A stretch of 64,000 bases of DNA from an uncultured Oligoflexia bacterium (GCA_964475985.1 CAYYYP010000005.1:15269-79268); one strand, 5' to 3'. Counted from the stretch's first letter, positions 9,666 to 33,279 are shown. A program made the numbers and translations. Notes: generated by a model from the letters alone, not told the origin.

Positions 9666-10223
9666 ATGTCCATGAATCTTTTAAATTCACCCGAAAATCT
9701 TGAAAAACTCATCGCAATCGTTCCTGACTTTCCTACTAAGGGCGTTCTTTTTCGCGATATCACGCCACTCCTGGCTTCCAGCGAAGGTTTTGCCTTGGCG
9801 ATTGATGCTTTGGTTCAAGACATCGACCTTTCAGAAATTGATTGCATTGCAGGGATTGAATCCCGCGGCTTCATCCTAGCTGCAGCGCTTGCCGTGAAGT
9901 TTAATAAAGGGTTTCTGCCTATCCGGAAAAAAGGCAAACTACCTCAACCCGTGATTTCGCAAAGTTACAACTTGGAATACGGAACGGACGTCTTAGAAAT
10001 GCGTCCCTACAAACCGGTTTCCGAAGCCATTGCCAAAAAGCCACAAATTTTAGTGGTCGATGACGTCCTCGCCACGGGCGGCACAATTGCCGCAGCACTT
10101 AAGCTTTGCGAAAAGGCCGGCTACTTTGTGAAAGACATTTCCTTCCTTATCAATCTTGTGTACCTAAATACATTTCAATGGCAACAGACGCGTCCCAAAG
10201 CAGTATTCTCCTACAAAACATAA
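9666..10223 (+). CDS. apt: adenine phosphoribosyltransferase
   Basis: 185 aa with the PRTase motif VVDDVLATGGT. It is colinear with E. coli Apt over its full length. The 3' end overlaps the next gene. Confidence 0.85.
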   Translation: MSMNLLNSPENLEKLIAIVPDFPTKGVLFRDITPLLASSEGFALAIDALVQDIDLSEIDCIAGIESRGFILAAALAVKFNKGFLPIRKKGKLPQPVISQSYNLEYGTDVLEMRPYKPVSEAIAKKPQILVVDDVLATGGTIAAALKLCEKAGYFVKDISFLINLVYLNTFQWQQTRPKAVFSYKT

Positions 10224-17107: not shown

Positions 17108-17745
17108 AAAGCCTCCATCATGGTGTCGTAGGAGTCAGCCGCAATGAGCAGGGAAATGTCGTGCAGAGCATTTTGAAACCTGCTCTCGTTAATGAGGACT
17201 GAAGTATTTCCTAAATCACCTGCGATATTATTTCCCGGATAGAGGCGGGACCTAGAAAATCCTTTTCCCCAAAGTACGGCGCCGTCCCGTCGTTTCAGAT
17301 AAAGCGTTACCCCAGCGGTGGCTTGATACTCAGATGCCACGATGAAGTTTGAAGGAAGTGGGGCCGTACCGGTCGGCGAGTTTTGATTGAGTTGGGTTGC
17401 GCCGGAGACGCTGGTTACACTGCTCTGGGCTAAGTCAATGCTGCCGGTCAAAACGGCATCCGCATCTTCCACCCGGTCGGTGAGCTGAACCCTGCCCTGC
17501 TTTGCGTATTCCTGAAGTAATGCGCTAGTAAAGGGCACTTCAAGGCCAGCCTTAAGCGTGTTGTTTTTCAAAGGGTAGATATAAAGTTTATTAATTTTTT
17601 CCCGTGACCAAATATTTTCGGGCGAACGTAGATGGTAACCGCATCCCGTTACGCCACTTAAAAACAAAATTAAAAAACCAAGGGGTAGCGCCCTACGAGA
17701 GAGAAATCCTAAGGGCTTTGATAACTTTTTCCAATTTACGATCAT
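17104..17745 (-). CDS. lptE: LPS-assembly lipoprotein LptE
   Basis: Lipobox LSGVTGC followed by GYHLRSP (the LptE CG[FWY]HLRG signature). The start chosen is the ATG at 17745, which overlaps the upstream gene's 3' end. The ORF is open to 17847. Confidence 0.65.
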   Translation of the reverse strand: MIVNWKKLSKPLGFLSRRALPLGFLILFLSGVTGCGYHLRSPENIWSREKINKLYIYPLKNNTLKAGLEVPFTSALLQEYAKQGRVQLTDRVEDADAVLTGSIDLAQSSVTSVSGATQLNQNSPTGTAPLPSNFIVASEYQATAGVTLYLKRRDGAVLWGKGFSRSRLYPGNNIAGDLGNTSVLINESRFQNALHDISLLIAADSYDTMMEAF

Positions 17746-18736
17746 CCAAACGAGCCTTATCACGATACTGATTCTCCAACTCCTTGAGAGCTTCAAGGGC
17801 TTTCTGCTGTGGGTCCTTGTGGGCCGACTTGGACATGAGATTATCAAAAATATTCGTAATGGCTACAATCCTTGCAAGGTCATAAATGGCAAGGCCCTTC
17901 ATTCCCTTAGGAAAGCCCGTCCCATCCAAAAATTCATGGTGCTGTGCCACGATCATAAGCACTTCAGAGGGGATCTCCCGAGCATTTCGGTTCATTCCTT
18001 CGAGGAGATCACGCCCAATATTGGGGTGCTCCAGCCATTCTGGGTCATCTTCCTGAATGAGCCCCTCGGCTTTAACGCTCAAGGCTGTTTTGCCAATGTC
18101 GTGCAGGAGACCGCCAATGGCTAAATGTTCCAAAATAACCTGGCTAGTGTAACCAAGACGCAATCCAACAAAAATGCTCGTAACCGATACATTCACGGCA
18201 TGATCGATGGCACCTTTACCAAACTTATGAAGGGAGGCAACATTGTTGATGACAAAAGGCTTATCCAAAAATGCGGTGACCAGCTCTCGCGAGCGCTGAA
18301 GGGAGAACTTAATGGCCTCCTGTTTGGCGTGGGCTTCAAAAAGTGAAAACACACTTTTTCGCAAATCCAACACCGCGCCACGAATCGGCGCTTCCGCTTC
18401 AGGAACTTCGGCAGGTCGACTCACTTTCTTTACCCCGGCCAAAATTTCTTCAGGCGTTTGTTTTTTCAGGTCTTTGATATCGTTATTCTCAGCCCAAAGG
18501 AGAAATTCCAATTTACGTTCTTCGGGAATAAATACGGTGCGGACTTGGTTGAATAAAAGTTTATCAAACTCGGCCGGACTCAACTCATCGCCTTGGGACT
18601 TATACTTTACTAGTTTATGCCGTAAGCACAGAAAAAGATCGCCCGGCAGAGGCTGGGACGCAAGGAGTCGCAAAGTTGGCCAGGAAAGCTGACACGAAAT
18701 CTTTGTTTCTTCAGATTCTTTTTTTTTTGGCATCAT
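17693..18736 (-). CDS. HD-GYP domain c-di-GMP phosphodiesterase with an N-terminal domain of unknown function
   Basis: 347 aa with GGLLHDIGK and HHEFLDGTGFP motifs. It begins 13 bp downstream of the pelG-fusion stop on the same strand. Confidence 0.8.
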   Translation of the reverse strand: MMPKKKESEETKISCQLSWPTLRLLASQPLPGDLFLCLRHKLVKYKSQGDELSPAEFDKLLFNQVRTVFIPEERKLEFLLWAENNDIKDLKKQTPEEILAGVKKVSRPAEVPEAEAPIRGAVLDLRKSVFSLFEAHAKQEAIKFSLQRSRELVTAFLDKPFVINNVASLHKFGKGAIDHAVNVSVTSIFVGLRLGYTSQVILEHLAIGGLLHDIGKTALSVKAEGLIQEDDPEWLEHPNIGRDLLEGMNRNAREIPSEVLMIVAQHHEFLDGTGFPKGMKGLAIYDLARIVAITNIFDNLMSKSAHKDPQQKALEALKELENQYRDKARLDDRKLEKVIKALRISLS

Positions 18737-18749
18737 TCTCCCACCTTCT

Positions 18750-21131
18750 TTAATTTTTAAAAAAACTTCCGTCTAAGGCCCGGCCGGTGACTAACCCTAA
18801 AAATCCGTGCTTTTTCAAAGCTTCCAGCGCTTTTGCAGTTTGTCCTCGCCCCGTTAAATATTCTACGCCTAAAATGAGCTTCCGAGGCAAAGACTGCGAT
18901 TGCAGTTTTTTGACGCAGGACAGTACCTCTATCTGTGGCCGCCAAGGGTTATCCTGCCAGTTTGATCCGAAATAAAATGTTGATTCCAGAGCCAGAAGAT
19001 CAAAACTTTCTAAAAATTTTTTCTGGACCTCAAACTCTTTGAAGGCCGCTAGTTCAAGGAAAAGGCAGGGCGCATTCTGAATTGCTAAAAGAGCGGGTTC
19101 ACTCCCCCAGATGGATTTCATTTTTGCCCGCAGATCAATCACCAACTCAGCCATTTGGGTTGCGCGCAATGCTTGCTCAGCCTTGGGAAAGCGGCCATAG
19201 GCGTCGATCAAATCTAAGTACACACCGTTGAATCCTGCATCGTGGATTTTCCGTAAGTAATCATAAAGCACCGCGCGCCACTGCGGATCCCAAAATTTAA
19301 GCAGGTGATTTTTTTTAAACCGTTTGTTTTCTGAAACCAGAAGGCCCCTTTGCTTTATGCCTTGAAAGTACCAGCGATACTCCTCCGCTTCCCCAACGCT
19401 GAGGTAGGCTAGACTCCGGTGGGGATCACTCGGCGCGGTGGCCGAAAGGGTTTTTAGAAGATTTTTATTGGGTTCAAGCAAACTGATATCAAGCACGTAA
19501 AGCGTGGTTTGCCGCGCCGGCCGGTTTGAAAGGCCAGTAGGATCACCTTGAAGCTGATATATCCATTTTTCTATTTTAGGAAGTACGGCAGCTGTGTCTA
19601 GGGGACGGGCCGTTACCGGACTTGAAAATAGGGGCAAGGCAATCAGCGCCCAGATGAAGGAACTTTTTAGACTTCTATTTCGCGAAAAGAATTTATGTTT
19701 TGATTTCTTTGCGGAAGCAAGCGGTTGACGCTGAAAAATTAGAGAGTGCAATCGTCCCAGGACGTTATTTAGGTCCGTTAGGGAAACCGTAAGGCAAACC
19801 AGTGCCGCAAAGGCATAACCCATTCCAAAATATTTTCCGTAGTTGCCGCCAATGAATTTTAAGGAGAGCAGCGTGCCCCCGAGGTTGAGCAAAAACAATA
19901 TCAGATAATTTTTAAGCGCCATGAAGGGTAGGTCGAAATACAAAATGAGTAAGTTTGTAATGAGTGCAAAGGCATGAAACATGCTCCCAAGAAGCCCAAA
20001 TCGAAATACAATCAAAGTTACGGCCGGCAGTTTAAAGTACTGGGTGATGGTGGCAGACGCGGAATAAGCTAGGGCCGTGATTAAAATCTGAAATAAGAAG
20101 AGCCATTTGAATTCGGTGCGTAAACCCTGCACCATACGTTGCCTCGCATCTTCAAGCATCGCCAAGGGTGCCTTTTCATGAATCAAGCCAAAATATTCGC
20201 GGTAACGCATGTAAAATTTCACTTCAATCTGCACTAGAAATAATGCCATGGCGGGCACGACAAAAAGATATCCTAAAAAAATTCCGGCATCGTAGGAGGT
20301 TGACTTAAATAAGCCGTAGGCAACTTTTTCGCGGGTATGGGAATTGGTCCAAAAAAGAATTTTGTCGCACCACACCCCCAGGGAATAAAAGAAACCCACA
20401 GCACTTAAGACCCACCTCGTTTTCCAAAATTCTAAAAAACTTTCGCTGTGGGCTACCTTCGGTGAAAGGGACGGAGAATGCGGGGATGTTTGGAATTCCA
20501 ATTGGACTTTGCGAATGAGAATACCGTCGATCAATAAGTTGCCTAAAATAAAGCTTGTGAGTAGCCAGTTCAGCCCACTTATTCCGAGCTTACCGCCCAT
20601 CCAGACAGCCGAAATACTTAAGGCAGCACCGGCGATAAAACCCCAAACGATGGATAAATAATCCTTAAGGGCGCCTAAGAAAATCATGCAAACCCATTGA
20701 CCCATCAGCACCGCAATGACGATGCCGCATAAAACTAAGCTCAAACCAGGAATTTTAAGCAAATAAAAAAAGATCAGTCCGAGGGCTAAACCTACTGCCG
20801 TCGTTCGCCAAAATACCCGTTTAAAAAAACTCCCAATGCCTTCAATATTTTTAAAATAAAGGGCGTCGGCAATAAAGCGGGTGATGACCATTTCAACCAC
20901 GCCAAACAAAACGAGTGAAAAAGCGTAGGAGTAATTCAGAATTACGCGGAAAACTTCCCCGGATTTAGGTTCAGGAAAACGTTTAGCCAAAGAAGAAATC
21001 ACGGCAATGGTAAGAATTGCCATGAGCCAAGGACCGGAAGAAACTACTACGGAACCTAGGAGGCCTTGAGTCCTTTGAAACCAATTTCCGTGTTTGATGG
21101 CCCGGTGGAGGCGAAAGCCTATTCCTGCCAT
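18750..21131 (-). CDS. pelG: PelG-like polysaccharide exporter (MOP/MATE-like multi-TM protein) fused to a C-terminal GH114-like (PelA-hydrolase-type) TIM-barrel domain
   Basis: The start MAGIGFRLHRAIK is PelG-like and is followed by about 12 hydrophobic helices. Next comes a basic segment plus an extra hydrophobic helix (KSKHKFFSRNRSLKSSFIWALIALPLFSSPVTA). The following roughly 290 aa carry GH114/DUF297-like motifs (LAYLSVGEAEEYRWYF; WDPQWRAVLYDYLRKIHDAGFNGVYLDLIDAY). It is a single uninterrupted ORF. Confidence 0.6.
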   Translation of the reverse strand: MAGIGFRLHRAIKHGNWFQRTQGLLGSVVVSSGPWLMAILTIAVISSLAKRFPEPKSGEVFRVILNYSYAFSLVLFGVVEMVITRFIADALYFKNIEGIGSFFKRVFWRTTAVGLALGLIFFYLLKIPGLSLVLCGIVIAVLMGQWVCMIFLGALKDYLSIVWGFIAGAALSISAVWMGGKLGISGLNWLLTSFILGNLLIDGILIRKVQLEFQTSPHSPSLSPKVAHSESFLEFWKTRWVLSAVGFFYSLGVWCDKILFWTNSHTREKVAYGLFKSTSYDAGIFLGYLFVVPAMALFLVQIEVKFYMRYREYFGLIHEKAPLAMLEDARQRMVQGLRTEFKWLFLFQILITALAYSASATITQYFKLPAVTLIVFRFGLLGSMFHAFALITNLLILYFDLPFMALKNYLILFLLNLGGTLLSLKFIGGNYGKYFGMGYAFAALVCLTVSLTDLNNVLGRLHSLIFQRQPLASAKKSKHKFFSRNRSLKSSFIWALIALPLFSSPVTARPLDTAAVLPKIEKWIYQLQGDPTGLSNRPARQTTLYVLDISLLEPNKNLLKTLSATAPSDPHRSLAYLSVGEAEEYRWYFQGIKQRGLLVSENKRFKKNHLLKFWDPQWRAVLYDYLRKIHDAGFNGVYLDLIDAYGRFPKAEQALRATQMAELVIDLRAKMKSIWGSEPALLAIQNAPCLFLELAAFKEFEVQKKFLESFDLLALESTFYFGSNWQDNPWRPQIEVLSCVKKLQSQSLPRKLILGVEYLTGRGQTAKALEALKKHGFLGLVTGRALDGSFFKN

Positions 21132-22756
21132 GGTAAACTCTCTTGATTTATCCCACTGATATCGACACCACAAATAAGTTCGTTATAAAACTTGTCATAC
21201 TGCTCAAAAAGTTCCTTTTCGTGGTAAAAATGGCCAGCCCTAAGCATTCCGGCCTGGGAGCACTCTTCCCAAAATAGATCTTCCATCATAAGGCGCATTA
21301 TGGATTGAGCAATCCCTAAGCCATCGCCTAAGGGAACGATAAGTCCGCTGGGTCCTAAAATACGATCGGCTTCCGATAACCCTAAAATCATTTCCCGGCA
21401 CGCACCCACATCGGTCGCCACTACCGGTACACCGGCCGATGAAGCCTCCAGAATTACCAGGGGCTGAGACTCTGAGATGCTGGTGAGCACCAAAACATCG
21501 GCGGTCTGCAAAACTTCCGTGGCAGGGAGTAGACCTTCGAATTTTATGAGCTGAGAAAGGCCAAGGATTTGCACCATTTCTTCGCACTCTTTTACATAAT
21601 CCTTCTCTTCATTGTGGGGTCCGACGATGCGGCAAAAAAATGAAATCGGTTCCGCTTGGCTGACTTGCAAATCAAAAAGTAACTTTATGGACTTGATAAG
21701 TAGTTTGATATCCTTAATGGAAACCACTCGGCCTAAGAAAAGAATTTCGAAGGGTCGTTTTTCGGCGCGTTTTTTTGGCCAAAGTGGATGCCGAGTTCTT
21801 ATGCCTTGGTAACGATTGTGTACGCCATTAGGAACCACAAAACACTTTTTGGGATCGGCGCCATCAAATACTTGCCGTTTACGATTGCCTCCGTGCAAAG
21901 TAACCACGCGCGAAGCACCGGCGTAGGCTAAAGCACTCAAGTTCCTAAAGACATTGATCCACCAGCTACGAAAATGTTTCAAAGGCTCAAAGGGAAGTTG
22001 CAGCAGAAGGCCAGGATCATAAAGCCAATTGGCTTCCCCCAATTCAATGGCGCGCTCATGAGCATAGATACCATGTTCCGTAACCATAAAGGGTGAAGCG
22101 TGCTGCATTGCCGCCAATATACCGCAAAGCCCCGCATATCCCGTACACATGGAATGGTACACTTTGGCGTTGGGGTAACTTAAATTGATGAGCCGCAGAA
22201 GCGGAATTTGGATGGCGCGCCAGGAATAAAAAAAGTCAAGAAAGGGCAAACCTTGTTTCATGGGGGATACCCGCTCGTATTCATCAACGATGACGTCCCA
22301 GGCGTCCTCGCTTTGCAAATGCCTGAGTACACTTTCCGAGGACATGCTTTTGGCAAACTTTTTAAGTTTAAATAAATCCTGTTTATTAAATTTAGCGTGT
22401 TGCAAATCCTCGGGACTTTGAAAAATATCAAATCCATCGTGAACGGAATTACCCTGGATCAGCGTCTGAAATTCCTGGAAGGAGGCCATGGCGGCTTGCA
22501 GATTCTTGGCGTTCAAGGCGCCGGTATCGGACGAAAATTCGTCAAACAGAAATACCTCCCTTAAGTGCAACACATTAGCCGGCAATTCGTACTGCATTGG
22601 CGGCAATTGATCGGAGCGTGAACCCAGGTAGAGAATTTCAAATGTGAGATGCGGCAAACCTTTGATCAAGGCGTGGGTCCAACTGGCCACTCCGCCGTAA
22701 ACGTAGGGGTAAGTGCCCTCTAGTATTAAGCAGACATCAGCCACGGGCCACCTCAT
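21119..22756 (-). CDS. pelF: PelF-like GT4 glycosyltransferase
   Basis: 545 aa. The N-terminus VADVCLILEGTYPYVYGGVASW is the PelF-specific DUF3492-like start. The C-terminal half is a GT4 fold. Confidence 0.75.
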   Translation of the reverse strand: MRWPVADVCLILEGTYPYVYGGVASWTHALIKGLPHLTFEILYLGSRSDQLPPMQYELPANVLHLREVFLFDEFSSDTGALNAKNLQAAMASFQEFQTLIQGNSVHDGFDIFQSPEDLQHAKFNKQDLFKLKKFAKSMSSESVLRHLQSEDAWDVIVDEYERVSPMKQGLPFLDFFYSWRAIQIPLLRLINLSYPNAKVYHSMCTGYAGLCGILAAMQHASPFMVTEHGIYAHERAIELGEANWLYDPGLLLQLPFEPLKHFRSWWINVFRNLSALAYAGASRVVTLHGGNRKRQVFDGADPKKCFVVPNGVHNRYQGIRTRHPLWPKKRAEKRPFEILFLGRVVSIKDIKLLIKSIKLLFDLQVSQAEPISFFCRIVGPHNEEKDYVKECEEMVQILGLSQLIKFEGLLPATEVLQTADVLVLTSISESQPLVILEASSAGVPVVATDVGACREMILGLSEADRILGPSGLIVPLGDGLGIAQSIMRLMMEDLFWEECSQAGMLRAGHFYHEKELFEQYDKFYNELICGVDISGINQESLPWQE

Positions 22757-23969
22757 GACTTGACCAGTGGTTCAAGCAGGCGGCAGCCCTTACGAATAGG
22801 GGTCCAGAGAGGCCTATTTCGTCAAAGACCCATTTTGAAAAATGAAGGACCTCAGATGATTTAGGACGATCTAAGTTCAAGATCGCAAGAATGGTCTGGG
22901 CCATTTCAAGATTTTTTACCGTCGTAGCGTTTCGTAACAATGAGAAAAGAATTTCAAACGGAATTCTTCGTCCCGAAATATTCTTATTTTGTAAACTTCC
23001 TTGCAGTAGCCTTAGGAGTTGAAGCTGTAATTCCGGTTTGAGTTCTTGCTCAAGTAAATTCATTAACACGTCCCGGAAGAGCCACGCCTGCACCCGCAGA
23101 AAATCCATTAATAGATTTGCCTTTGCGGTATCCGGATGCATGCCTAGGGCGAGCACTTCTTTCCAGTACTTGAGGGACCACTTCACCGGTTTTAAGAAAT
23201 TAAGGATTAGCCTTAGGAAATGTTCATCAAAATCAAAAATTTTTATGGGTTCATAAGCCTGCTGCGTTACGGAAAGGGCAATCTCCCGAGCCAAAATCTC
23301 ACGATAGCGGCTCAAAATTTGGTTGGTTTTGTCCGGCAGGCTGCTTAGAGACATGCTTTTCAACTCAGCGTGAAAAATTTCCACCTGATTGCTCCGCGCA
23401 CCACAGATGAGCAACTCTTGGCAAAGCCCTTCCACCGCCTCCTCCATAAAGCCTGCTTTAAAAAACTGAAACCGTTCCAGAATCAGACGCTGAATTCCCG
23501 GGTCCTTTAAAAGATAGGGACGTTTTGCGAGATGATGGAAAAAAACCGCTAAGAATTCTACCCCACCCCCTTTGCATGATTCATAAAATCTCAGGACCGA
23601 TTCCGGCTGCAACGCCCTAATTCCAAAAAAAGACTTTAAGATATTAAGGCTTAAAAAACTTGTGGGTTGGACTCCGGGAAGCGCTAGTGCCGAAATTAAA
23701 GCGCTAAACCACCCTTCGCATTCCCTAAGCCCTAAAGTGCCTAGGTTCACCAGAGCTTGCATCACCTCAATCATCGCCCCCTGAACCACGAGGGTTTCCC
23801 GGGAAAAAATTTTCCCGTACTCCTGAGTCGGAAAGGCCTTAGGATTTTCGGGCAACCTTAACCAGGCGATTCGCCTTACCAGCTCATCCGGATCCTGGAG
23901 TAATTTTGTTAGCTCCGAAGTTTCAAGAATCGCTTGGTCTTGCCATAAAAAATTCAAATCCCTATTCAT
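22737..23969 (-). CDS. hypothetical soluble helical protein inside the pel-like operon
   Basis: 410 aa with no obvious transmembrane segment and no recognised domain. It is Leu-rich and helical. It overlaps neighbours by 4 to 20 bp, which is operon-style packing. Confidence 0.4.
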   Translation of the reverse strand: MNRDLNFLWQDQAILETSELTKLLQDPDELVRRIAWLRLPENPKAFPTQEYGKIFSRETLVVQGAMIEVMQALVNLGTLGLRECEGWFSALISALALPGVQPTSFLSLNILKSFFGIRALQPESVLRFYESCKGGGVEFLAVFFHHLAKRPYLLKDPGIQRLILERFQFFKAGFMEEAVEGLCQELLICGARSNQVEIFHAELKSMSLSSLPDKTNQILSRYREILAREIALSVTQQAYEPIKIFDFDEHFLRLILNFLKPVKWSLKYWKEVLALGMHPDTAKANLLMDFLRVQAWLFRDVLMNLLEQELKPELQLQLLRLLQGSLQNKNISGRRIPFEILFSLLRNATTVKNLEMAQTILAILNLDRPKSSEVLHFSKWVFDEIGLSGPLFVRAAACLNHWSSHEVARG

Positions 23970-24757
23970 TTAAAGTTTTGCTCCAGCCAAAAGAGAACCT
24001 GCTCGCGAATTTCATCGGGCAATTTATCGCTGCCGCCACAACGACGCACCAGCTCCTGGCAGCATCGTTTTACCCCCGGAAAGTCCGATTGCATAAAATA
24101 GGCTTCCGCTTTCCAAAACCAGCCATTAAACCAATCCGGCGCAAAAACCATGGCCTGGTCAAAACAGAAAATCGCCTTTTCCAAAAGATTTTCCTGAAGG
24201 TGTATTTTTCCCAACTGTCGCCAGTAATAGGTATTATCCGGATTGCTCTCCACTGCCGCCTGCATGAGTTTTCTCCCAATTTGAATGTGGGAGTACGTTA
24301 CTTCTGGATCCATAAGTCCCGTGCGGTAAGCGATCATCAGTGATTCGATTAAGTTGTAAAGCTCCTGCGGCGAGGGCTTAGCGACGTCAGGGTAGGAGCT
24401 TAAAAGTTTCACCTCGTTTAACCAACGCTTTTCAAAATAAGCTAAGGCCTGCGTCGCTAAATAACAAATTTCATAATCTGGATCGCGCTGGGCCACTCGC
24501 AAGAGTATGACGCTATCCCGAGAGAATCGCCTCTTTAAGCGTCCAATGACTTCACGCTTCACACTTTTACTGCCTCCGCGAATGAGATCACTTAGGGATT
24601 GCAGCGACATGTTTTCTGAACTTAAGGCATCTTTAGCGAAAATCTCGGAATAACTTTTAGCCAATAGTTCGAGGGATCGTTCCTGAAAAAAACGCTCATC
24701 GGCCGCTTGGGTATCATAAAATTCCTGGAGTGCCCGGCCGCGGATGTTTAAGCTCAC
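23966..24757 (-). CDS. TPR-like repeat protein, possibly a PelE analogue lacking transmembrane helices
   Basis: 263 aa with TPR-like helical repeats (YYWRQLGKIHLQENLLEKAIFCFDQAMVFAPDWFNGWFWKAEAYF). No hydrophobic anchor. Confidence 0.45.
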   Translation of the reverse strand: MSLNIRGRALQEFYDTQAADERFFQERSLELLAKSYSEIFAKDALSSENMSLQSLSDLIRGGSKSVKREVIGRLKRRFSRDSVILLRVAQRDPDYEICYLATQALAYFEKRWLNEVKLLSSYPDVAKPSPQELYNLIESLMIAYRTGLMDPEVTYSHIQIGRKLMQAAVESNPDNTYYWRQLGKIHLQENLLEKAIFCFDQAMVFAPDWFNGWFWKAEAYFMQSDFPGVKRCCQELVRRCGGSDKLPDEIREQVLFWLEQNFK

Positions 24758-26310
24758 GATGGAGTTATCCCAGTAAGACCATTTTTATTGATATAACTCT
24801 TCCACGATAAATTTTTATCCTCACTCTTCACGGACTCTGGGTTCACCTCGATTCGCTTCATACCAAGCGCCGGCAAACCAGTAATAAATTGCCTTAAACG
24901 CGCATATTCATGCGTAACTGATTCATCCAACGCACGTAAAGTTGCTCCGTCTACACCTCGGGCAAATAACTTAAAGGAAGCATCCTTCGGATCACTATAA
25001 AACGTGGCTTGCCCCGCGAGACTTAAGTGCGCGATGCCGTCGCTTAAGGCCCGAGAAAACGCTTTTCGAAATACGATTTCACGTGCCTCTAAAAAATCGA
25101 CATCGGGCCACTCCGGGGTCCATTCCAAAAGACTCAAATTGATTTTTGTTTTTTTTGCGAGCAACCAATCTTCTTCGGCCCGTACATCTAAAACCCTTGT
25201 GGAAAAACATTGGCCGATAAAGTCCCAAAAATCATCCTCCTGATTTTGGGTTAAGCCCTGGCTCTTGCGGAGGGCCACGCCAAACCACCGAGAAAGTTCG
25301 CGCAATGCCGCAAAGTTAGAACTTTTATAATTCATGAACTGAAAGCTGTGGAACAGGATGACCCCTAAAATATTTTGGGAATCATCCATAAGCGGAACGA
25401 CCACGGGGTACCGTGCACGACTCCCCTTAGAAGATCCGGCTGCGTTCTCCCCGGCGTAGAGCTGAAATGTAAATACATCCCGGTTAGAAATTGCGTATCC
25501 AATCTCACTAATCTCCGAAAATTCCTTCCGAGGAATTTCCTTAGGAAATCGTTTTTGATCCGCCACAACGGGCGCCAAGCGCTTGAGCCCCGGATGTTCA
25601 AAACGATAGATCGCAAAATCCTCCTCGCTAAAATATTCCGAGAGAAACCGGTAAAAACGTACGCCTAAAAGTTCGGTTGAGATATTAAAGGATTCTCGGC
25701 CAAAACGAAAAATTTCAAGTGCGCTCTGCACTCTGGCCGCAAGCCTTCGTTCCATGTTCTGGCTTTCGGCAGTGAGACGTTGTCGCACCACTGCAGATTC
25801 CCCTAAGTTGTGAAGTAATTTTTGGTTTTCATCTTCAATGCCCTTAGTTTTCCGCCGAAAAGCATCTCCCACTACGCCAAAGGCAAAGCAGGTTAAGAGA
25901 AACGAAAGCGGAAACTTAAAGTAATTTGCGGAAAATACGCTCTCAACCTCAAGCACATCGAGCCTACTGGCTTCGTAAAAAAAATAAAACCCACCGTAGA
26001 CCACTCCCAAAAGCAGGGCAGGTTTTAGACCAGCAAGTACCGAGAGGATGCCCAGGCAAAAAAGATAAGGGTGTGGGTTCACGTCAATATAGGCCGGATT
26101 TCCGCCATTCAGTAATCCTAAAATCAGTCCGGGAAGCAGTCCCACCAGAAAGGCCGAAAGGGAATGGGTCATGGTCGGGAAATATTTTTGAATCTTAAAA
26201 CCACCAGCTAAAAATCCCCTTGGCGACGTGGACTCCTGCAAATCCTCCAGTGGGTTCCGTGGCGGAACCGGGGGCGTTGGCGTTGAAGAGCTGGGATGTG
26301 TAGAATCCAT
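24754..26310 (-). CDS. pelD: PelD-like c-di-GMP receptor (N-terminal transmembrane helices + GAF-like + degenerate GGDEF)
   Basis: There are four hydrophobic helices in the N-terminal 150 aa, followed by a soluble region of about 350 aa. Its position between PelB and PelE/F-like genes matches pel gene order. The start may instead be MTHSL (26172). Confidence 0.5.
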   Translation of the reverse strand: MDSTHPSSSTPTPPVPPRNPLEDLQESTSPRGFLAGGFKIQKYFPTMTHSLSAFLVGLLPGLILGLLNGGNPAYIDVNPHPYLFCLGILSVLAGLKPALLLGVVYGGFYFFYEASRLDVLEVESVFSANYFKFPLSFLLTCFAFGVVGDAFRRKTKGIEDENQKLLHNLGESAVVRQRLTAESQNMERRLAARVQSALEIFRFGRESFNISTELLGVRFYRFLSEYFSEEDFAIYRFEHPGLKRLAPVVADQKRFPKEIPRKEFSEISEIGYAISNRDVFTFQLYAGENAAGSSKGSRARYPVVVPLMDDSQNILGVILFHSFQFMNYKSSNFAALRELSRWFGVALRKSQGLTQNQEDDFWDFIGQCFSTRVLDVRAEEDWLLAKKTKINLSLLEWTPEWPDVDFLEAREIVFRKAFSRALSDGIAHLSLAGQATFYSDPKDASFKLFARGVDGATLRALDESVTHEYARLRQFITGLPALGMKRIEVNPESVKSEDKNLSWKSYINKNGLTGITPS

Positions 26311-28972
26311 AACTCAAATGTAAACTCATCGTACCTAAAACAAAATCACCAAGGTCAAATTCCAAATATTCTGTGGTATTTCCCGCAACTTCCCGTTGAG
26401 GCCCGTTCTCAAAATTTTTGCCCCATCCGCCAGAGATCTTAGGGCCGCTCGCAAAATAACCAGACTGACGCAAAGCGCCGTTAGTTGCATTGCGACACAA
26501 GCTGTCCCATGCACAGAAAATTTCAAATGAAATAAAGCCACCGCCAAATGCCATCCGTTGAAGCATCAGGTTTTCCAGGGACTCACCGCTAGCCAATCGA
26601 CCGTTGCCTACCCATCTCAACCACTGTGCCCAGGGACCCACCGAGAATCCTAATGTGTTTTCAGGTTTCCCAAAGGAAATTCTTGAACTGGACTCCAAGC
26701 CAAAGCCCTGAGCAAAAGCAAAATGATCTTCAGAATTATTTACGTGGGTGAATCGAACGCGTGCCCCTTGAACAAAAAGTATCCAAGGATGCAAAATGAC
26801 TTCCCCATAACCCTCAAGGGTAGACTCCGAGGCTCCGGCGCCCACGAGTGAACGAGAAATATTTAAGGGGGCAGAGAGGTTTGCCTCTAACATACCGTAA
26901 CGTAGTGCTCCGTAGGCGGCCATTAACCTGGTCTCAAGTCTTGGCCTGAATCCACGCCAATCGCCGAGCTCGGTGAGTCGCACACCCGCGCGCATTTCCC
27001 AAGCAAGCGTAGGGCTCATCGTGTAGCTCACAAAAGCTTCCGGAGAAATGAGATGAAGGTGGTTGTCCCAAAATGACTCCTGACTCACGATGACCCCTAA
27101 CCGCCAAGCAGTCTGTTTTAGCGGTGTATGAAAAATCAGGTTTTTTTCCGTCGTAGAAAATTCATCTAAAAACACGCCATTAAATTCAAAACCAAAGTAA
27201 TGCGATTGCGGCAATGCCAGTTCATTTACCAAAATCGCTTCCGCCGTTTTTGTACCCTCAGCGGCTTGAAGTTCAACGGATTTTGCGGCCACTTCATTTC
27301 TTTTTGCGAGATCAATTTCTTGCAAACGGGAAACGACGTCAACCAAAGTTAGTCGTTCGGCAGGTAACCGTTTTTCTATCTCTGCTTCAAGCCGCGGCAA
27401 TTGTGGTCCGATTAGCCTGGCCTCCGTATCGGTTAGCCCACCAGCCTCATACTTTGCGATGAAACCGATGGCCGTAAGTACCGGTGCATTTGAGAAAGTA
27501 AAATTTTTAAGCTGGCCCTGAAATTCAAGCAGACCAGAAGCCTCTCCACTCCAAAGGTACCTTAAAAAAAGCTGTTCAAGCACGTGGGTTTTTAATTTGG
27601 TAAGCCCTGGCCTGGCTTCAAGTTTTCGCCAAAGCTCCATGTATGACTTTCTTGCTTCCTCATTTTTTTGCTGAGCCTCAAGGCTAGCCACCAGGAGTCG
27701 GTAGTCCTTCCAAAGTTCTTCCCCGCTCAAAATCCCCGCGGATTGGGCTAAGGCGTTAGGGAAGGGAGTTAAAAGTTCTAAGAACTTAAGTAGGAAATAG
27801 GACCGTTGCTTCAGTCGCTTCATTGCGGCTTTTGGATCTTCACCCGCAACTAAGGCTTGCATGATTTGTTCAGCAAGTTGTGGGTCATGGAAATCTAATG
27901 CTGCTTGGGCAAAGCTTCGCCATGTTTCCCGCGAAATCTTTAAATCCCCGATCAAGTTATCATCAAAAAGAAATTCCCTAAGGGCTTGCCGAGCGACCCG
28001 CGCTCCATCGGCTCCGATACCGGCTTGCACGTGCAGGGCATCAAGTTTGAGCTGCAAAAAGTCAATTCCGCGCTGAGTAAGCAGAGCCTGGTGTGTAAGC
28101 GCTAGTTGAAAAAGCGAGTAAGCTTCGCCCTTAAGCGCAGGAAATTTAGCGGCATCAAAGGCAATATCCAGAAATGCGTGGATCTCGGCATTCCATTCAC
28201 GTACGGAAATTTTTTGGCAATAGTTCAAGTAGTCCAGCAGGGCACGGCGCAGCTGTGAGAAGTCACTTAAGTTCGTGTCTCGAAAGTTTCGTTCAGCGCG
28301 GCTTACCCAATAATTTAGTCGGAAAATCGTAATTCCGTAGGCCTTAACGCTTTTGTCATCACCCAGAATTTCAAACGCACGCTTAAAGTTTCCTTGGCTT
28401 GCAAGGGTACGAAGCCACCGGTTGAAATCATCAAGGGGTAAAAGACTTTGGCGCCAAATTTTTTCATAAACCCGCAGCGCATCGGGCGCCGATTGCAGCC
28501 ACTCATAATCATGGGCTAACCGCAGATAACGGGCGGGCCCTGACTGCGGAGCCGTCACCACCTCTTCCCCCCTGAGATTTTGCACGTGCGGTAACGGAAT
28601 TTTATTATCCCATAGATATTCCTCAACTCGGGCGGCTTCCAGCGCCCGGCCCTGCCACCTCAGTTGCCGCAACAGACGCTCCCAATAGTTTTTATTGTTA
28701 GGCCTGAGTTTCGTAAGGTCATAAAGAATTTTTATGGCCTCTGAAACATTGCCTTCCACTTCCAGCACATCCACCATTTGCCTTAACGCCACGGCATCTG
28801 GCATTTTCGTAAGCATAGCCCGCCGGAGAATCGGCTCGGCAAGTTCTGGCTGAAAGCTTTGAAAACGCAAGGCCGCTAACTCGGTGTCACTTGGCATGGT
28901 AAAAAACAGACTCAGCGCACCCATGCTAAAAAAAGCCAAAATTAAACTAGGATCCATGAAATTTCGTTTCAC
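26195..28972 (-). CDS. pelB: PelB-like TPR scaffold with a C-terminal outer-membrane beta-barrel
   Basis: 925 aa with an N-terminal signal/anchor and many TPR-like helices. The C-terminal roughly 300 aa show alternating hydrophobic beta-strand character and end ...GIFSWWF (a terminal aromatic). Confidence 0.55.
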   Translation of the reverse strand: MKRNFMDPSLILAFFSMGALSLFFTMPSDTELAALRFQSFQPELAEPILRRAMLTKMPDAVALRQMVDVLEVEGNVSEAIKILYDLTKLRPNNKNYWERLLRQLRWQGRALEAARVEEYLWDNKIPLPHVQNLRGEEVVTAPQSGPARYLRLAHDYEWLQSAPDALRVYEKIWRQSLLPLDDFNRWLRTLASQGNFKRAFEILGDDKSVKAYGITIFRLNYWVSRAERNFRDTNLSDFSQLRRALLDYLNYCQKISVREWNAEIHAFLDIAFDAAKFPALKGEAYSLFQLALTHQALLTQRGIDFLQLKLDALHVQAGIGADGARVARQALREFLFDDNLIGDLKISRETWRSFAQAALDFHDPQLAEQIMQALVAGEDPKAAMKRLKQRSYFLLKFLELLTPFPNALAQSAGILSGEELWKDYRLLVASLEAQQKNEEARKSYMELWRKLEARPGLTKLKTHVLEQLFLRYLWSGEASGLLEFQGQLKNFTFSNAPVLTAIGFIAKYEAGGLTDTEARLIGPQLPRLEAEIEKRLPAERLTLVDVVSRLQEIDLAKRNEVAAKSVELQAAEGTKTAEAILVNELALPQSHYFGFEFNGVFLDEFSTTEKNLIFHTPLKQTAWRLGVIVSQESFWDNHLHLISPEAFVSYTMSPTLAWEMRAGVRLTELGDWRGFRPRLETRLMAAYGALRYGMLEANLSAPLNISRSLVGAGASESTLEGYGEVILHPWILFVQGARVRFTHVNNSEDHFAFAQGFGLESSSRISFGKPENTLGFSVGPWAQWLRWVGNGRLASGESLENLMLQRMAFGGGFISFEIFCAWDSLCRNATNGALRQSGYFASGPKISGGWGKNFENGPQREVAGNTTEYLEFDLGDFVLGTMSLHLSYGFYTSQLFNANAPGSATEPTGGFAGVHVAKGIFSWWF

Positions 28973-31077
28973 AGGCGTCGCACCTCGATGGTTTGCGGCA
29001 CGGACTTTACCTCAAAATCCAAAGCGAGGATTCGTTTATCCTTAGACCGCACTTTACCTCCTACTACCGTAACCCCTTCAAGCGAAGTGTCTCTCGCCTC
29101 AAGAATTAAGGGACCTCGTGCCCAAGCCGCTAATTTCACCCGTATACCTTTCTTTGTCGGCAGCACATCAAAGGCGTCCACAACTCCCCCAACACTTTGC
29201 AACGCAAATGGAAGGGAGGAATTCATAAACCGGCAATGCGGACTTCGGTAGATTTGAACTTTAAGGTTTTGTCGATGCGGCATGGGATGCAAGTAAGTTT
29301 TATTTTTAATCCGAACAGATCCCATGAAATCCTTGGACGACACACAGAAGCCTGGGTCCTCCAGTCGAAAATCCGCCACGTTACCCACATTGCGAATCTC
29401 CAGAGTGTTGGGTTTACCCAACTCATGGTAAAAATCAGTCTCTAAAAATCCCTCGACGGCGCGTATATAAGTGGTCGGCGGCACCAGGGCAATCTCCTCG
29501 GAGTGAGCTTTAAACCAACGAATGATATTTTTTAATGCCAGGAGGGATTGCGGTCTTTCACCTGAGTAAAAATGAAAATACGCATTGGCCGGTTTCAATG
29601 TGAAACCCAAGGGTGAGTTAAGGCCGGTATTTTCATAGGTTTGAATGACACTTTCAAATCCGCGGTAATTTTTTGTAAACCCATCAGTGTAAATGAAGTC
29701 ATTGGCGTTTCCAGAAAACACCTGGAAGCCCGAGGCCCAAGGCCTCCCAAGTGGCGCCAAAAAAGCCAAGGAAGGAAACACCGTATCAAATCTAGAATCA
29801 CCGCCGTTTAAGTTATAAAGTCCGGCGGCCTTCGTCATTCTCATTGCCCGCTCCCCCGGAACGCAGCCGCCCGACCAGTAAATCGTTTCAACCTCAGATT
29901 CTTTTTTTTGCAAAAGCTTCGCAATGGCGCTGCGGGATTTGAGGATCTCTATCTCAAGGTCTATTTTCTCGCGCGAACCATCATCAAAACTGGTCGTACC
30001 CCTCATCCAATTCAGAGGATGAAAAAAAGTATGCGTAGCAAACTCTACATTTTTTAAATTTCCAAAACTTTTTACAATGGACTCTGTTCGTTCATTCCCC
30101 AGGTGCCGGCTTAAGACTTCGCTTGCGATAAAGGAGACGCCAAAGGGAATGTCAGGATTTCTCAGGAGAATTTCATCCCGGATCACTTCGCCGGAGAGGG
30201 GCTCTGGTTGTTTTTCAAAATGCGCTTCCGAGGAAAAACCATCACCATCGGTGTGTAAAAAAGCAATCCTGCGACCGTTCAGAACCGAAACGTCAGGAAC
30301 GATCATTTCTTTCGGTAAACCTAAAGCCCGTTGCAAAAATAATATGGGGTTTACAACCCATTGCCGCCTTTCTGAGCCTACGTCACTGAAGAGGCCGAAG
30401 TTCCCGTAGGCCCAAGAGAAGTTTTTTGCGGAGTGCGCGATCTGACTGAATAAAATCGATTCCTGGGCGCCCTTAGGCGAACCCATGGCGAGAAGCGTCT
30501 CGCCCGCATGGGCCCTAACTCTTAAAGTAACAAAGTCGTCCACCCACTCCGGGGACTTTCTCTCAAAATCTAAAACGGCCGCCTGATTTTTAATCACCTT
30601 CAAACCAAAGGGTTTGGTTTCAAAGTGCTGATACTCCGCCCCCCATCGCAAAAAGAATTCGTTTAGATTTGCGGCCGGGATCTGTGATAAAAAACCAAAG
30701 CTTCCAAAGGCGATCCACTTAAGTCTGGTCTGCGCTAAAGAATTGAGCCAACGGAAAAGTTTTTGATGATTGACCAGACTTTCCGAAAAAAAAAGGGTCG
30801 CTACGGCGCGAACTTTATTGTCCTGAATCAATTCCGAAGCAGGTGGCAACGTCTGGGTATCAATGTCGATGAGGCGGGTGCGCATCCCCAGCAACTGCAG
30901 AGGGAACTCTAGGGCAAGGCTCGCGGGGTTATCCGAAATACTGCCCGATTCCTTAGAGGACCAGAGGCAGATCACTTCCCTTGGAAAAGGAAGAGACGCT
31001 GAAAAGGCAAACCGCGGAAAAAAATCTACCAAAATCAAACAAATGAAAAAGATTTTTATTTGATTTTTTTTCCCCAT
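28969..31077 (-). CDS. pelA: PelA-like polysaccharide deacetylase (CE4) lacking the N-terminal GH114 hydrolase module
   Basis: 702 aa with a signal peptide. It has CE4-like motif 1 (AFLHTDGDGF) and motif 2 (ATHTFFHP). This length fits the reductase-like, CE4 and jelly-roll parts of PelA without the hydrolase domain. Confidence 0.55.
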   Translation of the reverse strand: MGKKNQIKIFFICLILVDFFPRFAFSASLPFPREVICLWSSKESGSISDNPASLALEFPLQLLGMRTRLIDIDTQTLPPASELIQDNKVRAVATLFFSESLVNHQKLFRWLNSLAQTRLKWIAFGSFGFLSQIPAANLNEFFLRWGAEYQHFETKPFGLKVIKNQAAVLDFERKSPEWVDDFVTLRVRAHAGETLLAMGSPKGAQESILFSQIAHSAKNFSWAYGNFGLFSDVGSERRQWVVNPILFLQRALGLPKEMIVPDVSVLNGRRIAFLHTDGDGFSSEAHFEKQPEPLSGEVIRDEILLRNPDIPFGVSFIASEVLSRHLGNERTESIVKSFGNLKNVEFATHTFFHPLNWMRGTTSFDDGSREKIDLEIEILKSRSAIAKLLQKKESEVETIYWSGGCVPGERAMRMTKAAGLYNLNGGDSRFDTVFPSLAFLAPLGRPWASGFQVFSGNANDFIYTDGFTKNYRGFESVIQTYENTGLNSPLGFTLKPANAYFHFYSGERPQSLLALKNIIRWFKAHSEEIALVPPTTYIRAVEGFLETDFYHELGKPNTLEIRNVGNVADFRLEDPGFCVSSKDFMGSVRIKNKTYLHPMPHRQNLKVQIYRSPHCRFMNSSLPFALQSVGGVVDAFDVLPTKKGIRVKLAAWARGPLILEARDTSLEGVTVVGGKVRSKDKRILALDFEVKSVPQTIEVRRL

Positions 31078-31562: not shown

Positions 31563-31598
31563 GGGGAGTTGGCTCCCCGGGGGTATTCGGGGGTATTC
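31563..31598 (+). promoter_or_regulatory. hairpin plus 10-bp tandem direct repeat overlapping the RBS of the 31599 lipoprotein gene
   Basis: GGGGAGttggCTCCCC is a 6-bp-stem hairpin (31563-31578). It is followed by 2 x GGGGGTATTC (31579-31598), which abut the ATG. Confidence 0.3.
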
Positions 31599-32765
31599 AT
31601 GACAAAGGGTTCAAGGTCCGTTCAATTCGGTTTTTTCGCGATCCTAGGGATCGTTCTGATGGGCCTTTCTGGCTGCAAACCACAATACATAAAAATGCTA
31701 GGTAAAGGTGGAAATGGCGGTGCTGGTGGCCCGTCCGCCGGCAGCACTAGTTTAGTTGCGGCCGAAGTGCTTCCCTCTCCCACTTCGGTTTCGACAAGGG
31801 CTGCTGTCCTTTCCATGAGCGGTGTTCCGCTGGCGCCCCAGGTCATGCAAATTGGCGGAGAACATCTCGACGCGGTCACTCAGATCACCATTGGTTCGGA
31901 AATCTGCACCATCTTTGATGCTACCCAAACTGCTGAAAAAGTGACCTGCATTGTTCCAGGCTCTTCTATACTTAACGCCATGCGCACTACCTCAGTTTCG
32001 GTACCGGTTACCCTTTACAATGCCCGTAGGACTGCAGTTACGGCGGGAAACTTCATCTATACAACTTTTCCGGACGACTGCATTTACGCCAACGTCATGC
32101 ATCAACTTTTAGACCGCGCTCCCACTACTTCAGAAATCGTACTGGCGGGGGATGGAGCCGATCCCTTAAACCGTATGGTTTCAAAAATATATACCCTCTT
32201 CTCATCTCCCGAATACAAAACGCACGCCGTAAAATCCCAATTTGTTATCCCACCCCTTTTCGAACAGCCCACCGCGATGGAATTCCAAGGCATCATTGAT
32301 GCAGTGCCAGCACCTTATTCGAACTTTAGACTTCGCAAAGAAATTCTGAAATCTTCCCGTTGGCAGCGGTTATTGGGAGAGCATACAGCTAACTCTTTTG
32401 AAGCATCCCGGGTGATCGGCAATTCCATTTTTTTAAGGGACACCTCTGATTTGGATCCCATTTATACAATTATCCTAAATAACCTTAATTACGACGCTTC
32501 ACTACCTTTCCAGGGAGCCAGCGATACGGAGTATTTCATAAATAACTTCGCCAGTAGACCCGCCTACCATTCCTCCATGGTGGACCTTTTGTGGAGCAAG
32601 TTTTTTGGCTCCGATTACAACGCACTTCGCGAAACTCACCGCGCCAACTTGACCAGCACATTAGTGGACGCCGGAACCAATCGTGGCACTCAGGAAGAAT
32701 CAACGATGGTGAGTATTTTAATCACGAACGATTATTCAAGGTACCGCAACTGCTCTGTTCTCTAA
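31599..32765 (+). CDS. hypothetical lipoprotein with an Ig-like (IPT/TIG-like) region
   Basis: ATG at 31599. The lipobox is LMGLSGC. A Gly-rich linker follows. Confidence 0.5.
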   Translation: MTKGSRSVQFGFFAILGIVLMGLSGCKPQYIKMLGKGGNGGAGGPSAGSTSLVAAEVLPSPTSVSTRAAVLSMSGVPLAPQVMQIGGEHLDAVTQITIGSEICTIFDATQTAEKVTCIVPGSSILNAMRTTSVSVPVTLYNARRTAVTAGNFIYTTFPDDCIYANVMHQLLDRAPTTSEIVLAGDGADPLNRMVSKIYTLFSSPEYKTHAVKSQFVIPPLFEQPTAMEFQGIIDAVPAPYSNFRLRKEILKSSRWQRLLGEHTANSFEASRVIGNSIFLRDTSDLDPIYTIILNNLNYDASLPFQGASDTEYFINNFASRPAYHSSMVDLLWSKFFGSDYNALRETHRANLTSTLVDAGTNRGTQEESTMVSILITNDYSRYRNCSVL

Positions 32766-32769: not shown

Positions 32770-33279
32770 TTAAGCCGCCTCACCCCGAAGCAGACGCAAA
32801 ATCCAAATAAAAACCATACCGGCCAGAATGCTGAGAAGAAAAATAAACACTGGCCAAAGATTTAAGAGTTCACGTTTCGGTTTTACCGAAGTTGCAGGCA
32901 CTTCAATGGGAGCGCTGACTCGAGACGCACCCGCCTGAGTTTTAGGCTGCCAAGACTGAGCCTCCAAAGAATTTGTAATGGTCTTTGATTCTTCTCCCGC
33001 GGCCGTTCCTTCGGGATCTAACGCCTTTTCCCTTCGATTTTCTAACGCCTGCACTAAGATGTTTTTTTCAATATTAAAATGCCTGTAAATTTCCTCAAAG
33101 GAATCCACGGAAAACCAGTACCCATTAGACGGGCAAAGCTCGTCTTTGGGATTCATATAACTGCCCAGTAGCATTTCCTTCACCTGAGACTCATAAAAAG
33201 GTCCCTGAATATCGGCACTGTACTGATTCCATTTGCGCAGCAGCCAAAGCTCAGACTTTTCGGTTGGCGCAGAATTCAT
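32770..33279 (-). CDS. hypothetical C-terminally membrane-anchored protein
   Basis: 169 aa. The C-terminus carries a hydrophobic helix, LWPVFIFLLSILAGMVFIWIL. Confidence 0.35.
   Translation of the reverse strand: MNSAPTEKSELWLLRKWNQYSADIQGPFYESQVKEMLLGSYMNPKDELCPSNGYWFSVDSFEEIYRHFNIEKNILVQALENRREKALDPEGTAAGEESKTITNSLEAQSWQPKTQAGASRVSAPIEVPATSVKPKRELLNLWPVFIFLLSILAGMVFIWILRLLRGEAA

Follow-up and report, generated by a model that had tools for sequence, protein, structure and literature searches.

Pel is a widespread polymer of the biofilm matrix, and the model of its export rests almost entirely on Pseudomonas, in which a dodecameric PelC ring sits on the PelB porin. The machinery of Pseudomonas aeruginosa is encoded by pelABCDEFG, and PelC is essential in this species (PMC12141448). 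Variation among pel operons is already known, including the split PelA functions of Gram-positive bacteria, as in Bacillus cereus ATCC 10987 with pelDEA(DA)FG and a separate pelA(H) (PMC7112168), and the fission of pelB (PMC7112194). Earlier surveys of Gram-negative bacteria used PelC as a query (PMC7112168), a design by which loci without PelC would have gone undetected. Organisms of the Bdellovibrionota appear in the 2020 operon survey in the list of screened genomes only, and no description of pel loci in this group was found in the searchable literature. Here, we describe a pel locus without pelC, located on the minus strand at positions 18750-31077 of a 64,000-nucleotide stretch of DNA (the window) from an uncultured Oligoflexia bacterium, together with its relatives.

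The region is best explained, with a probability of about 0.72 in our estimate, as a functional chromosomal operon for a Pel-like exopolysaccharide, that is, a polymer of alpha-1,4-linked N-acetylgalactosamine and galactosamine (alpha-1,4-GalNAc/GalN). As judged from sequence, it would be a streamlined derivative of a nine-gene pel architecture of the Bdellovibrionota. Seven open reading frames (ORFs) with abutting or overlapping stops and starts were found, encoding proteins of 702, 925, 518, 263, 410, 545, and 807 amino acids (aa) as first called. These ORFs are not due to chance, because all are long, intact (263-925 aa), and conserved in a second strain; they have a GC content of about 47%, and GC is flat at this level across the window. 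Overlaps between the intact ORFs indicated translational coupling, and scans for promoters and terminators returned sites no more numerous than in shuffled sequence. Two starts were moved. PelG was started at M15 of the long ORF, at the conserved MAGIGFRL, which gives 793 aa (18750-21131) in agreement with the homologue P0004 from another strain, and PelD was started at M47, which gives 472 aa (24754-26172), the same call as in the second strain (L034). Housekeeping genes flank the locus (topoisomerase I, phosphatidylserine decarboxylase, alanine racemase, mlaD/E/F-like, lptE, and holA), which places it on a chromosome and in a diderm host. The LptE, MlaD, and MlaE genes near the pel locus also back a diderm envelope, and the host is a diderm member of the Bdellovibrionota, probably of the Bacteriovoracia.

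The assignment to the Pel family is carried by PelF and PelG. The pelF gene (21119-22756; 545 aa) encodes a cytoplasmic GT4 glycosyltransferase, the Pel polymerase by family. It matched the NCBIfam equivalog NF038011 over the full model at 428.5 bits (cut-off 100) and the Pfam family DUF3492 (PF11997) at 246 bits, and Glyco_trans_1_4 and Glycos_transf_1 were matched as well. The PelG domain (aa 1-474 of the 793-aa product; 19710-21131) belongs to a multi-pass inner-membrane family and matched PF16933 at 324.7 bits, over positions 1-452 of 452. An earlier note on this DNA, made from the sequence alone, had proposed a GT4 transferase with the PelF-specific N-terminus, a PelG-like protein with 12 transmembrane (TM) segments, and a PelD-like protein. 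Hidden Markov models (HMMs) back the first two directly and the third by profile, and neither a mis-called pelC nor a mis-called membrane-anchored pelE was found in the locus. When searched singly, four of the seven proteins (PelB-like, PelD-like, PelE-like, and a 410-aa protein, hereafter X) gave almost no matches in Pfam, NCBIfam, or PDB. Five of the seven escape Pfam and NCBIfam, which is a practical reminder for users of these databases.

We compared the locus with described Pel systems. It shares with P. aeruginosa a PelF (GT4 with DUF3492), a PelG, a PelD-type protein (TM helices, GAF, and, less clearly, a GGDEF-like domain), a PelE-type tetratricopeptide repeat (TPR) protein, the motifs of a PelA-type deacetylase, a PelB-type anchor with a long TPR scaffold, and the gene order A-B-...-D-E-...-F-G. 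It differs in having no PelC at the locus, a PelA without the GH166 domain, a hydrolase of the TM1410 type (GH114 in Pfam) fused to PelG, a PelE without TM helices, an extra HEAT protein between pelE and pelF, and a PelD without a recognisable RxxD motif. The split of PelA functions and the absence of PelC are shared with B. cereus ATCC 10987. However, the Gram-positive clusters have no PelB, in line with their lack of an outer membrane, and depend on PelE, which has been described as belonging to the membrane complex; the hydrolase that they encode corresponds to the PelA hydrolase domain, and they have neither a HEAT protein nor a PelG fusion (PMC7112168). The Gram-positive (monoderm) type, which lacks outer-membrane components, was ruled out for the window by the PelB-like gene and by LptE, MlaD, and MlaE. 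Two proteobacterial loci, that of the betaproteobacterium Caldimonas tepidiphila (L032) and one with a PelG that bears the name Breoghania sp. (L033; host presumably alphaproteobacterial), resemble the window in having no pelC-sized gene, and their PelE carries HEAT_2 plus TPR signatures. In the Caldimonas locus, the region upstream of pelB contains a receiver gene and a separate Glyco_hydro_114 gene, and the hydrolase does not follow pelG. Both loci differ from the window in that pelB is split into two consecutive TPR proteins, echoing the pelB fission noted in PMC7112194, and in having no separate HEAT protein of about 650 aa and no fusion.

The closest relatives were found among the Bdellovibrionota. 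Three metagenome contigs (L001-L003) were reached through PelG homologues and the genome loci through an alignment of four PelF sequences; a scan of genome contigs with a single PelF sequence returned no match. The genome scan yielded, in addition to L001-L003, 28 loci, 27 of them with a full PelF relative, and almost all came from Bacteriovoracaceae, Halobacteriovorax, Bdellovibrio, and metagenome-assembled genomes of Oligoflexia. Gene content was determined by ORF calling and iterated HMMs, and unassigned ORFs were clustered. About 25 Bdellovibrionota loci share a common order of nine genes: pelA'-pelB'-receiver-pelD'-pelE'-HEAT-pelF-pelG-hydrolase. In this plan, pelA' encodes about 690 aa (deacetylase only), pelB' about 920-960, the receiver about 125, pelD' about 450, pelE' about 340 with two TM helices, and the HEAT protein about 650, and the separate hydrolase of the TM1410 type has about 290 aa with its own signal or lipoprotein peptide. 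Only two families other than the pel genes recurred in these loci: the HEAT protein, in 25 of them, and the receiver, in 18. The receivers were confirmed as receiver domains.

All seven proteins of the window have their best matches in L006, in syntenic order. The window shares with the Bdellovibrionota-type loci (e.g., L013, L017, L020, L023, and L006) the seven families and their order, the absence of PelC, a deacetylase-only PelA, a HEAT protein upstream of pelF, and a TM1410-type hydrolase right after pelG. It differs in five respects: the receiver is gone and pelB' and pelD' overlap instead; PelE has 263 rather than about 340 aa and no TM helices; X, with 410 aa, falls short of the usual length of about 650; hydrolase and PelG form one protein, whereas relatives have a separate hydrolase gene; and PelD has no recognisable RxxD, a motif found in 12 of 20 relatives. 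These comparisons suggest that the locus is a derived, streamlined member of a conserved Bdellovibrionota pel architecture, an arrangement that is apparently undescribed. The distinct Pel variant proposed in the earlier note is thus a real cluster with a variant architecture, but it is not a one-off, since about 25 loci share its parent plan. The synteny comparison that the note had called for showed the shared order among the Bdellovibrionota loci and the retention of the Pseudomonas-type order.

Some loci depart from the common plan. Three loci of the Halobacteriovorax type (L009, L014, and L029) read pelB'-receiver-pelD'-pelE'-HEAT-pelF-pelG with no adjacent pelA' or hydrolase gene, and the ORF after pelG encodes a Peptidase_M74 (MepA-like) lipoprotein. 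One of them, L029, is labelled Sulfitobacter, and its layout, nearly identical to that of the Halobacteriovorax loci, suggests a binning error. L027 is rearranged: it begins with pelD'-pelE'-HEAT-pelF-pelG-hydrolase, has a split pelB' behind the hydrolase gene, and ends with pelA'. L015 encodes an NAD-dependent epimerase (4494-5417) after pelG, at a PelX-like position. L001 carries a stand-alone receiver and an Hpt phosphotransfer protein (at 12180-12518 and 3920-4297), the Hpt gene lying right after the hydrolase gene, and this pair hints that a phosphorelay controls pel loci of this type.

The pelA-like gene (28969-31077; 702 aa) encodes a secreted polysaccharide de-N-acetylase of the PelA type (CE21), with a core at aa 235-547 (29437-30375) and a signal-like hydrophobic segment at aa 6-29. 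A phmmer search against PDB aligned residues 235-547 with residues 440-757 of the solved PelA 9cgy (E=2e-40), which covers the deacetylase domain only. The catalytic residues H275-x-D277-x-D279, H349/H353, and H502 are present and are conserved in at least 90% of 18 aligned sequences. The H-x-D-x-D and H-x-x-x-H motifs with a distal His are the catalytic motifs of the PelA-type esterase, which has been placed in CE21 and not in CE4 (PMC12022489); of the PelA-like CE4 deacetylase with signal peptide that had been proposed, the deacetylase and the signal-like N-terminus stand, but the family label does not. The clade HMM matched the PelA-like protein at a proteobacterial pel locus (L032/L033) at 1e-135. 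The 702-aa protein itself matched no Pfam family at threshold, and a GH166 hydrolase domain is absent: phmmer matched neither of the isolated hydrolase structures of PelA in PDB (5tcb and 5tsy).

The product of the pelB-like gene (26195-28972; 925 aa) has a hydrophobic anchor near its N-terminus (aa 8-28) and a helical scaffold of the TPR type that extends to about aa 590. The C-terminal ~335 aa are beta-rich, end in FSWWF, and presumably form a porin. An apolar helix at the N-terminus of PelB has been described (PMC12141448). The single sequence gave weak TPR matches; the family profile (A3) matched TPR families down to 1e-104 and the TPR region of BcsC at 1.7e-12, and together with the anchor these matches bear out the TPR-containing PelB-like protein that had been predicted. 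The clade HMM also matched the TPR proteins of the pel loci L032 and L033. Past residue 590 or so, beta-periodicity rises, alpha-periodicity falls, and the composition is rich in Gly, Ser, Thr, and aromatic residues; in 13 of 16 family members, the chain ends in an aromatic residue. These features are consistent with a beta-barrel porin, as presumed here. A search for protein homologues with the PelB-like sequence returned nothing.

The product of the pelD-like gene (24754-26172; 472 aa from M47) begins with TM helices and a coiled coil, after which come a GAF domain and a C-terminus that is GGDEF-like but strongly diverged. The window protein alone reached 18 bits against Pfam GAF_3. The profile of the clade PelD family (A2) matched the GAF domain of P. 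aeruginosa PelD (4dmz) at 5e-9 and GGDEF domains at 2e-12 in PDB. The PelD clade HMM matched the PelD of L033, which carries Pfam GAF and GGDEF domains, at 4e-68, and the window PelD at 4e-45, the latter over model positions 24-347 of 452 only, which comprise the TM, coiled-coil, and GAF regions and the first GGDEF-like strand. These profiles support the PelD-like reading with TM helices and a soluble region. Because the receiver gene is missing and PelD has no recognisable RxxD, canonical activation of this PelD by cyclic di-GMP (c-di-GMP) is doubtful.

The pelE-like gene (23966-24757; 263 aa) encodes a soluble HEAT/TPR protein. Pfam TPR_2 matched it at 33.7 bits, and no hydrophobic segment was detected, as expected for the TPR protein without TM segments listed fourth in the earlier note. 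In BLASTP comparisons, aa 22-259 aligned with residues 103-337 of a 338-aa protein of L001 (4e-15) and aa 6-257 with residues 91-339 of a 344-aa protein of L006 (2e-27), and the PelE clade HMM matched the genes at the pelE position in L033 (6.5e-30) and L032 (2e-18). Hydrophobic segments lie within the first ~90 aa in 22 of 23 PelE relatives (two in most, one in L012, whose start is ambiguous). By these alignments, the 263-aa protein is a PelE homologue that has lost the two N-terminal TM helices. Since its start overlaps the pelD stop, there is no upstream coding space for them. The claim that the locus lacks a membrane-anchored PelE was therefore right as to the anchor, but the PelE homologue itself is present.

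X (22737-23969; 410 aa), which had been listed as an unknown, matched nothing in Pfam, NCBIfam, or PDB; it can now be placed as a truncated, divergent member of the HEAT family of about 650 aa encoded between pelE and pelF, and is predicted to form an all-helical HEAT/ARM-like solenoid. In phmmer, X matched the 670-aa protein upstream of pelF in L006 at 3e-7, and in BLASTP its residues 250-402 aligned with 514-654 of this protein (5e-5). In hhalign, the X sub-family matched the HEAT-650 family at 95.7%. The HMM of the large HEAT-650 family, when searched against X, gave no direct match, and the link goes through L006, L004, and L003. Members of the family match Pfam HEAT_2 (64 bits in L013 and 33 bits in L006). 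AlphaFold2 modelling from the single sequence gave 23 helices at a moderate pLDDT of 60.5, and the top Foldseek matches of this model were armadillo/HEAT proteins (TM score 0.2-0.37), which support the placement weakly.

The hydrolase domain (aa 509-793; 18750-19607) that follows PelG is of the TM1410 / Pfam Glyco_hydro_114 type and is a presumed periplasmic endo-alpha-1,4-galactosaminidase. It matched PF03537 at 53.6 bits (cut-off 27) and TIGR01370 at 84.9 bits, which is below the cut-off of 181. Its best matches in PDB were TM1410 (1.4e-13) and, over the whole domain, 9ep5 (2e-11), whereas the PelA hydrolase reached just 0.04. D640 aligned with the nucleophile Asp156 of TM1410, and D640, D643, E716, and E757 are kept in at least 18 of 19 aligned hydrolases; E716 is, by spacing only, the candidate acid/base. 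TM1410 founds the family GH191, one member of which (Env-GH191) cleaves Pel and favours deacetylated stretches (PMC12054363). Thus the relocation claimed earlier, a GH114 hydrolase on PelG, holds insofar as PelG carries the domain and the PelA homologue has none, but the nearest group appears to be that of TM1410 (GH191) and not the fungal GH114 or the PelA GH166 enzymes. The characterised GH191 members are free soluble enzymes, whereas the window domain forms the C-terminus of an inner-membrane PelG.

The fusion is rare. All but one of 118 PelG homologues are PelG alone, of about 455-500 aa, and the single protein that shares the fusion is 98% identical and comes from an independent assembly. 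A frameshift or assembly artefact was considered and rejected, as this independent assembly yields the same 793-aa product. In relatives, the separate hydrolase gene overlaps the pelG stop and has its own signal or lipoprotein-type peptide; in the window, the frame reads through. The linker is a hydrophobic stretch at aa 491-508 (19608-19661), SFIWALIALPLFSSPVTA, preceded by the basic stretch KKSKHKFFSRNRSLK, and is seen as the former signal peptide of the hydrolase. It is predicted to form a 13th TM helix tethering the hydrolase. Other long PelG homologues are known: P0118-P0120 (773-873 aa; P0120 represents a cluster of 320 sequences) carry an extra TM segment followed by YD/GF-type repeats (e.g., YDKRGFN) that Pfam does not annotate, and some others have acidic tails. 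The PelG proteins of the P0120 type, with an extra TM segment and exported repeats, indicate that PelG can accommodate a 13th helix with an exported domain behind it. The PelG-hydrolase fusion may also be taken as a 'Rosetta-stone' hint that the polymer is trimmed at the inner-membrane exit site.

The absence of PelC, which had been claimed before, was borne out at the locus: no ORF lies between pelB and pelD, and the operon contains no PelC-sized gene. Because the genes abut or overlap, there is no room in the locus for a hidden pelC or an anchored pelE. Among the roughly 25 related loci, examined to a distance of 10 kb, no PelC-like lipoprotein recurred, and a cytoplasmic receiver takes the place of pelC. 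Since no lipoprotein family recurs in these loci, the clade as a whole lacks PelC at the locus, and an altered export geometry without the PelC ring may be inferred. Alternatively, PelC, and perhaps an anchored PelE or a receiver, may be encoded elsewhere in the genome, leaving the geometry as in Pseudomonas. The essential role of PelC in P. aeruginosa speaks for this (PMC12141448), as do the search, which covered 64 kb of the genome, and the divergence of PelB, PelC, and PelE, the most divergent Pel components (PMC7112194), so that sequence comparison could fail to detect a remote PelC. However, PelC is missing not only from this operon and, as a recurrent lipoprotein, from the surroundings of the related loci, but also from the proteobacterial loci L032 and L033, which have no pelC-sized gene. 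Furthermore, four candidate ORFs of the 64-kb window, the one with a lipobox and three other unassigned ones, gave no PelC match in PDB by phmmer, in a weak test in which no PelC entry appeared in any output. The PDB presumably holds the published PelC structures. We consider a canonical machinery with a distant pelC rather improbable. Two ORFs were rejected individually as PelC: the only small ORF with a lipobox in the window (190 aa; 39991-40563) and a 169-aa ORF (32770-33279) had no PelC or family match and are not conserved beside related loci.

The contigs of the second strain (L034 and L035) provided evidence that the operon is in use. The seven-gene layout, the fusion, and the TM-less PelE are all identical in kind. 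Between the two strains, the ratio of non-synonymous to synonymous substitution rates (dN/dS) is 0.03-0.2 for every pel-locus gene, with about 119 synonymous versus 42 non-synonymous differences in total, which shows purifying selection. X is an intact ORF in both, with 2 amino-acid differences. The losses listed above could also be read as the decay of a Bdellovibrionota pel operon whose polysaccharide is no longer made: the receiver gene and the TM helices of PelE are gone, the HEAT protein is shorter by about 240 residues, and in PelD the C-terminal half of the GGDEF-like domain, RxxD included, is no longer recognisable. Searches with X of 1.84 billion representative and 5.8 billion clustered proteins, moreover, returned no sequence but X itself. 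Against such a remnant, all seven ORFs are intact and translationally coupled, and the second strain has the identical architecture under the low dN/dS noted above. The fusion appears to have been selected, since it preserves frame, hydrophobic linker, and catalytic residues alike. The low dN/dS, the kept layout, and the intact catalytic residues of both tailoring enzymes, the deacetylase and the hydrolase, favour a functional streamlined system over decay, and we regard a remnant as quite improbable.

Several observations weigh against a functional streamlined operon and temper our estimate. AlphaFold2 gave no usable barrel model for the C-terminus of PelB from the single sequence (pLDDT 28.6); the profile of this domain found no match in PDB, and the full-length profile was swamped by TPR matches. 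The last ~120 residues of PelD could not be aligned to the clade, and its GGDEF-like domain begins where the alignment ends; in the alignment, LAGQ stands at the I-site position, where 12 of 20 relatives have RxxD. The lack of any hydrophobic segment in PelE is unprecedented among the 23 relatives. X is so divergent that only one full-length relative is detectable, and its dN/dS value derives from six substitutions only. The last two of these points could reflect relaxed constraint. The weakness of the PelC test described above belongs here as well.

As for the product, the polymer might be related to Pel yet chemically different, with the HEAT protein serving another assembly or modification logic rather than as a scaffold. 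PelF is 42% identical to the PelF of L003 and L006 and just ~35-42% identical across clade relatives, and the authors of the operon survey warn that divergent pel loci may not yield identical polymers (PMC7112194). TM1410 showed no activity on fungal galactosaminogalactan (GAG) oligomers, and activity on Pel was not reported (PMC12054363). On the other hand, PelF scores at four times the equivalog cut-off, the families of both tailoring enzymes have characterised members acting on alpha-1,4-GalNAc/GalN polymers (PMC12054363, PMC12022489), and the HEAT repeats carry no catalytic signature. A chemically different polymer is, in our judgement, unlikely.

On the preferred reading of a functional Pel-like operon, PelF would polymerise the sugar, probably GalNAc, in the cytoplasm, and PelG and PelD would together form the complex by which the chain crosses the inner membrane. 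The soluble PelE homologue and the HEAT solenoid X are probably cytoplasmic scaffolds that hold PelF on PelD/PelG, as suggested by the known PelDEFG complex and the conserved gene order. In the periplasm, the secreted PelA-type deacetylase, judging by its catalytic residues, may partly de-N-acetylate the polymer, and the TM1410-type hydrolase, tethered to PelG by the former signal peptide as a putative 13th TM helix, may trim it. PelB, with its inner-membrane anchor, TPR scaffold, and presumed porin, would then export the polymer without a PelC ring. Regulation appears to have diverged with the missing receiver gene and the PelD without RxxD, and canonical c-di-GMP binding may no longer be used.

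More broadly, Bdellovibrionota Pel may be made by a PelC-independent machine with two further conserved parts not known from the Pseudomonas and Bacillus systems, a cytoplasmic HEAT subunit of ~650 aa and a stand-alone phosphorelay receiver at the pelC position, and this machine would be rewired in the present locus by loss of the receiver and the c-di-GMP site, release of PelE from the membrane, and tethering of the hydrolase to PelG. We advance this wider view tentatively and hold it to be possible rather than probable. If true, PelC would not be universal for Pel export in diderm bacteria, and Pel output could be under phosphorelay control, or no control, rather than that of c-di-GMP. Loci without PelC across a predatory diderm phylum, with HEAT and receiver proteins and another hydrolase family, offer a natural comparison that bears on the role of PelC, on how PelF is held at the membrane, and on how Pel is switched on without or beside c-di-GMP.

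Genes related to c-di-GMP were found elsewhere in the window. Only 13 nucleotides downstream of the PelG-hydrolase gene, on the same strand, lies a gene for an HD-GYP-type protein of 347 aa (17693-18736) with the motif HHEFLDGTGFP and no receiver domain. It matched Pfam HD_5 at 69.6 bits and the NCBIfam 'c-di-GMP phosphodiesterase, NosR family' at 55 bits, below the cut-off. The gene is present in the second strain (L035) and is not found at this position in other clade loci. It may be co-transcribed with the pel operon, and its membership in the Pel system is uncertain. The lptE-like and holA-like genes come after it. A GAF and HD_5 (HD-GYP-type) protein is encoded at 3995-5467 on the plus strand, and a protein with two GYF_2 domains followed by a PilZ domain at 42040-42936 on the minus strand. 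The HD-GYP-type, GAF-HD-GYP, and PilZ genes together indicate that the organism uses c-di-GMP.

Other genes of the window were recorded in passing. Divergent from the pel operon, a 398-aa predicted lipoprotein (31569-32765, plus strand; LMGLSGCKPQ) had no match in Pfam, NCBIfam, or PDB. Two runs of ORFs of 215-443 aa contain no Pfam family at E<=1e-4, one at 43014-43988, 44059-45153, 45182-46486, and 46530-47642 and the other at 1062-2393, 2414-3061, and 3169-3891. A single ORF of 1117 aa (10106-13459, plus strand) combines ResB-like and cytochrome-c-assembly (CcsA-like) regions and is apparently a fused protein of the cytochrome c biogenesis system II.

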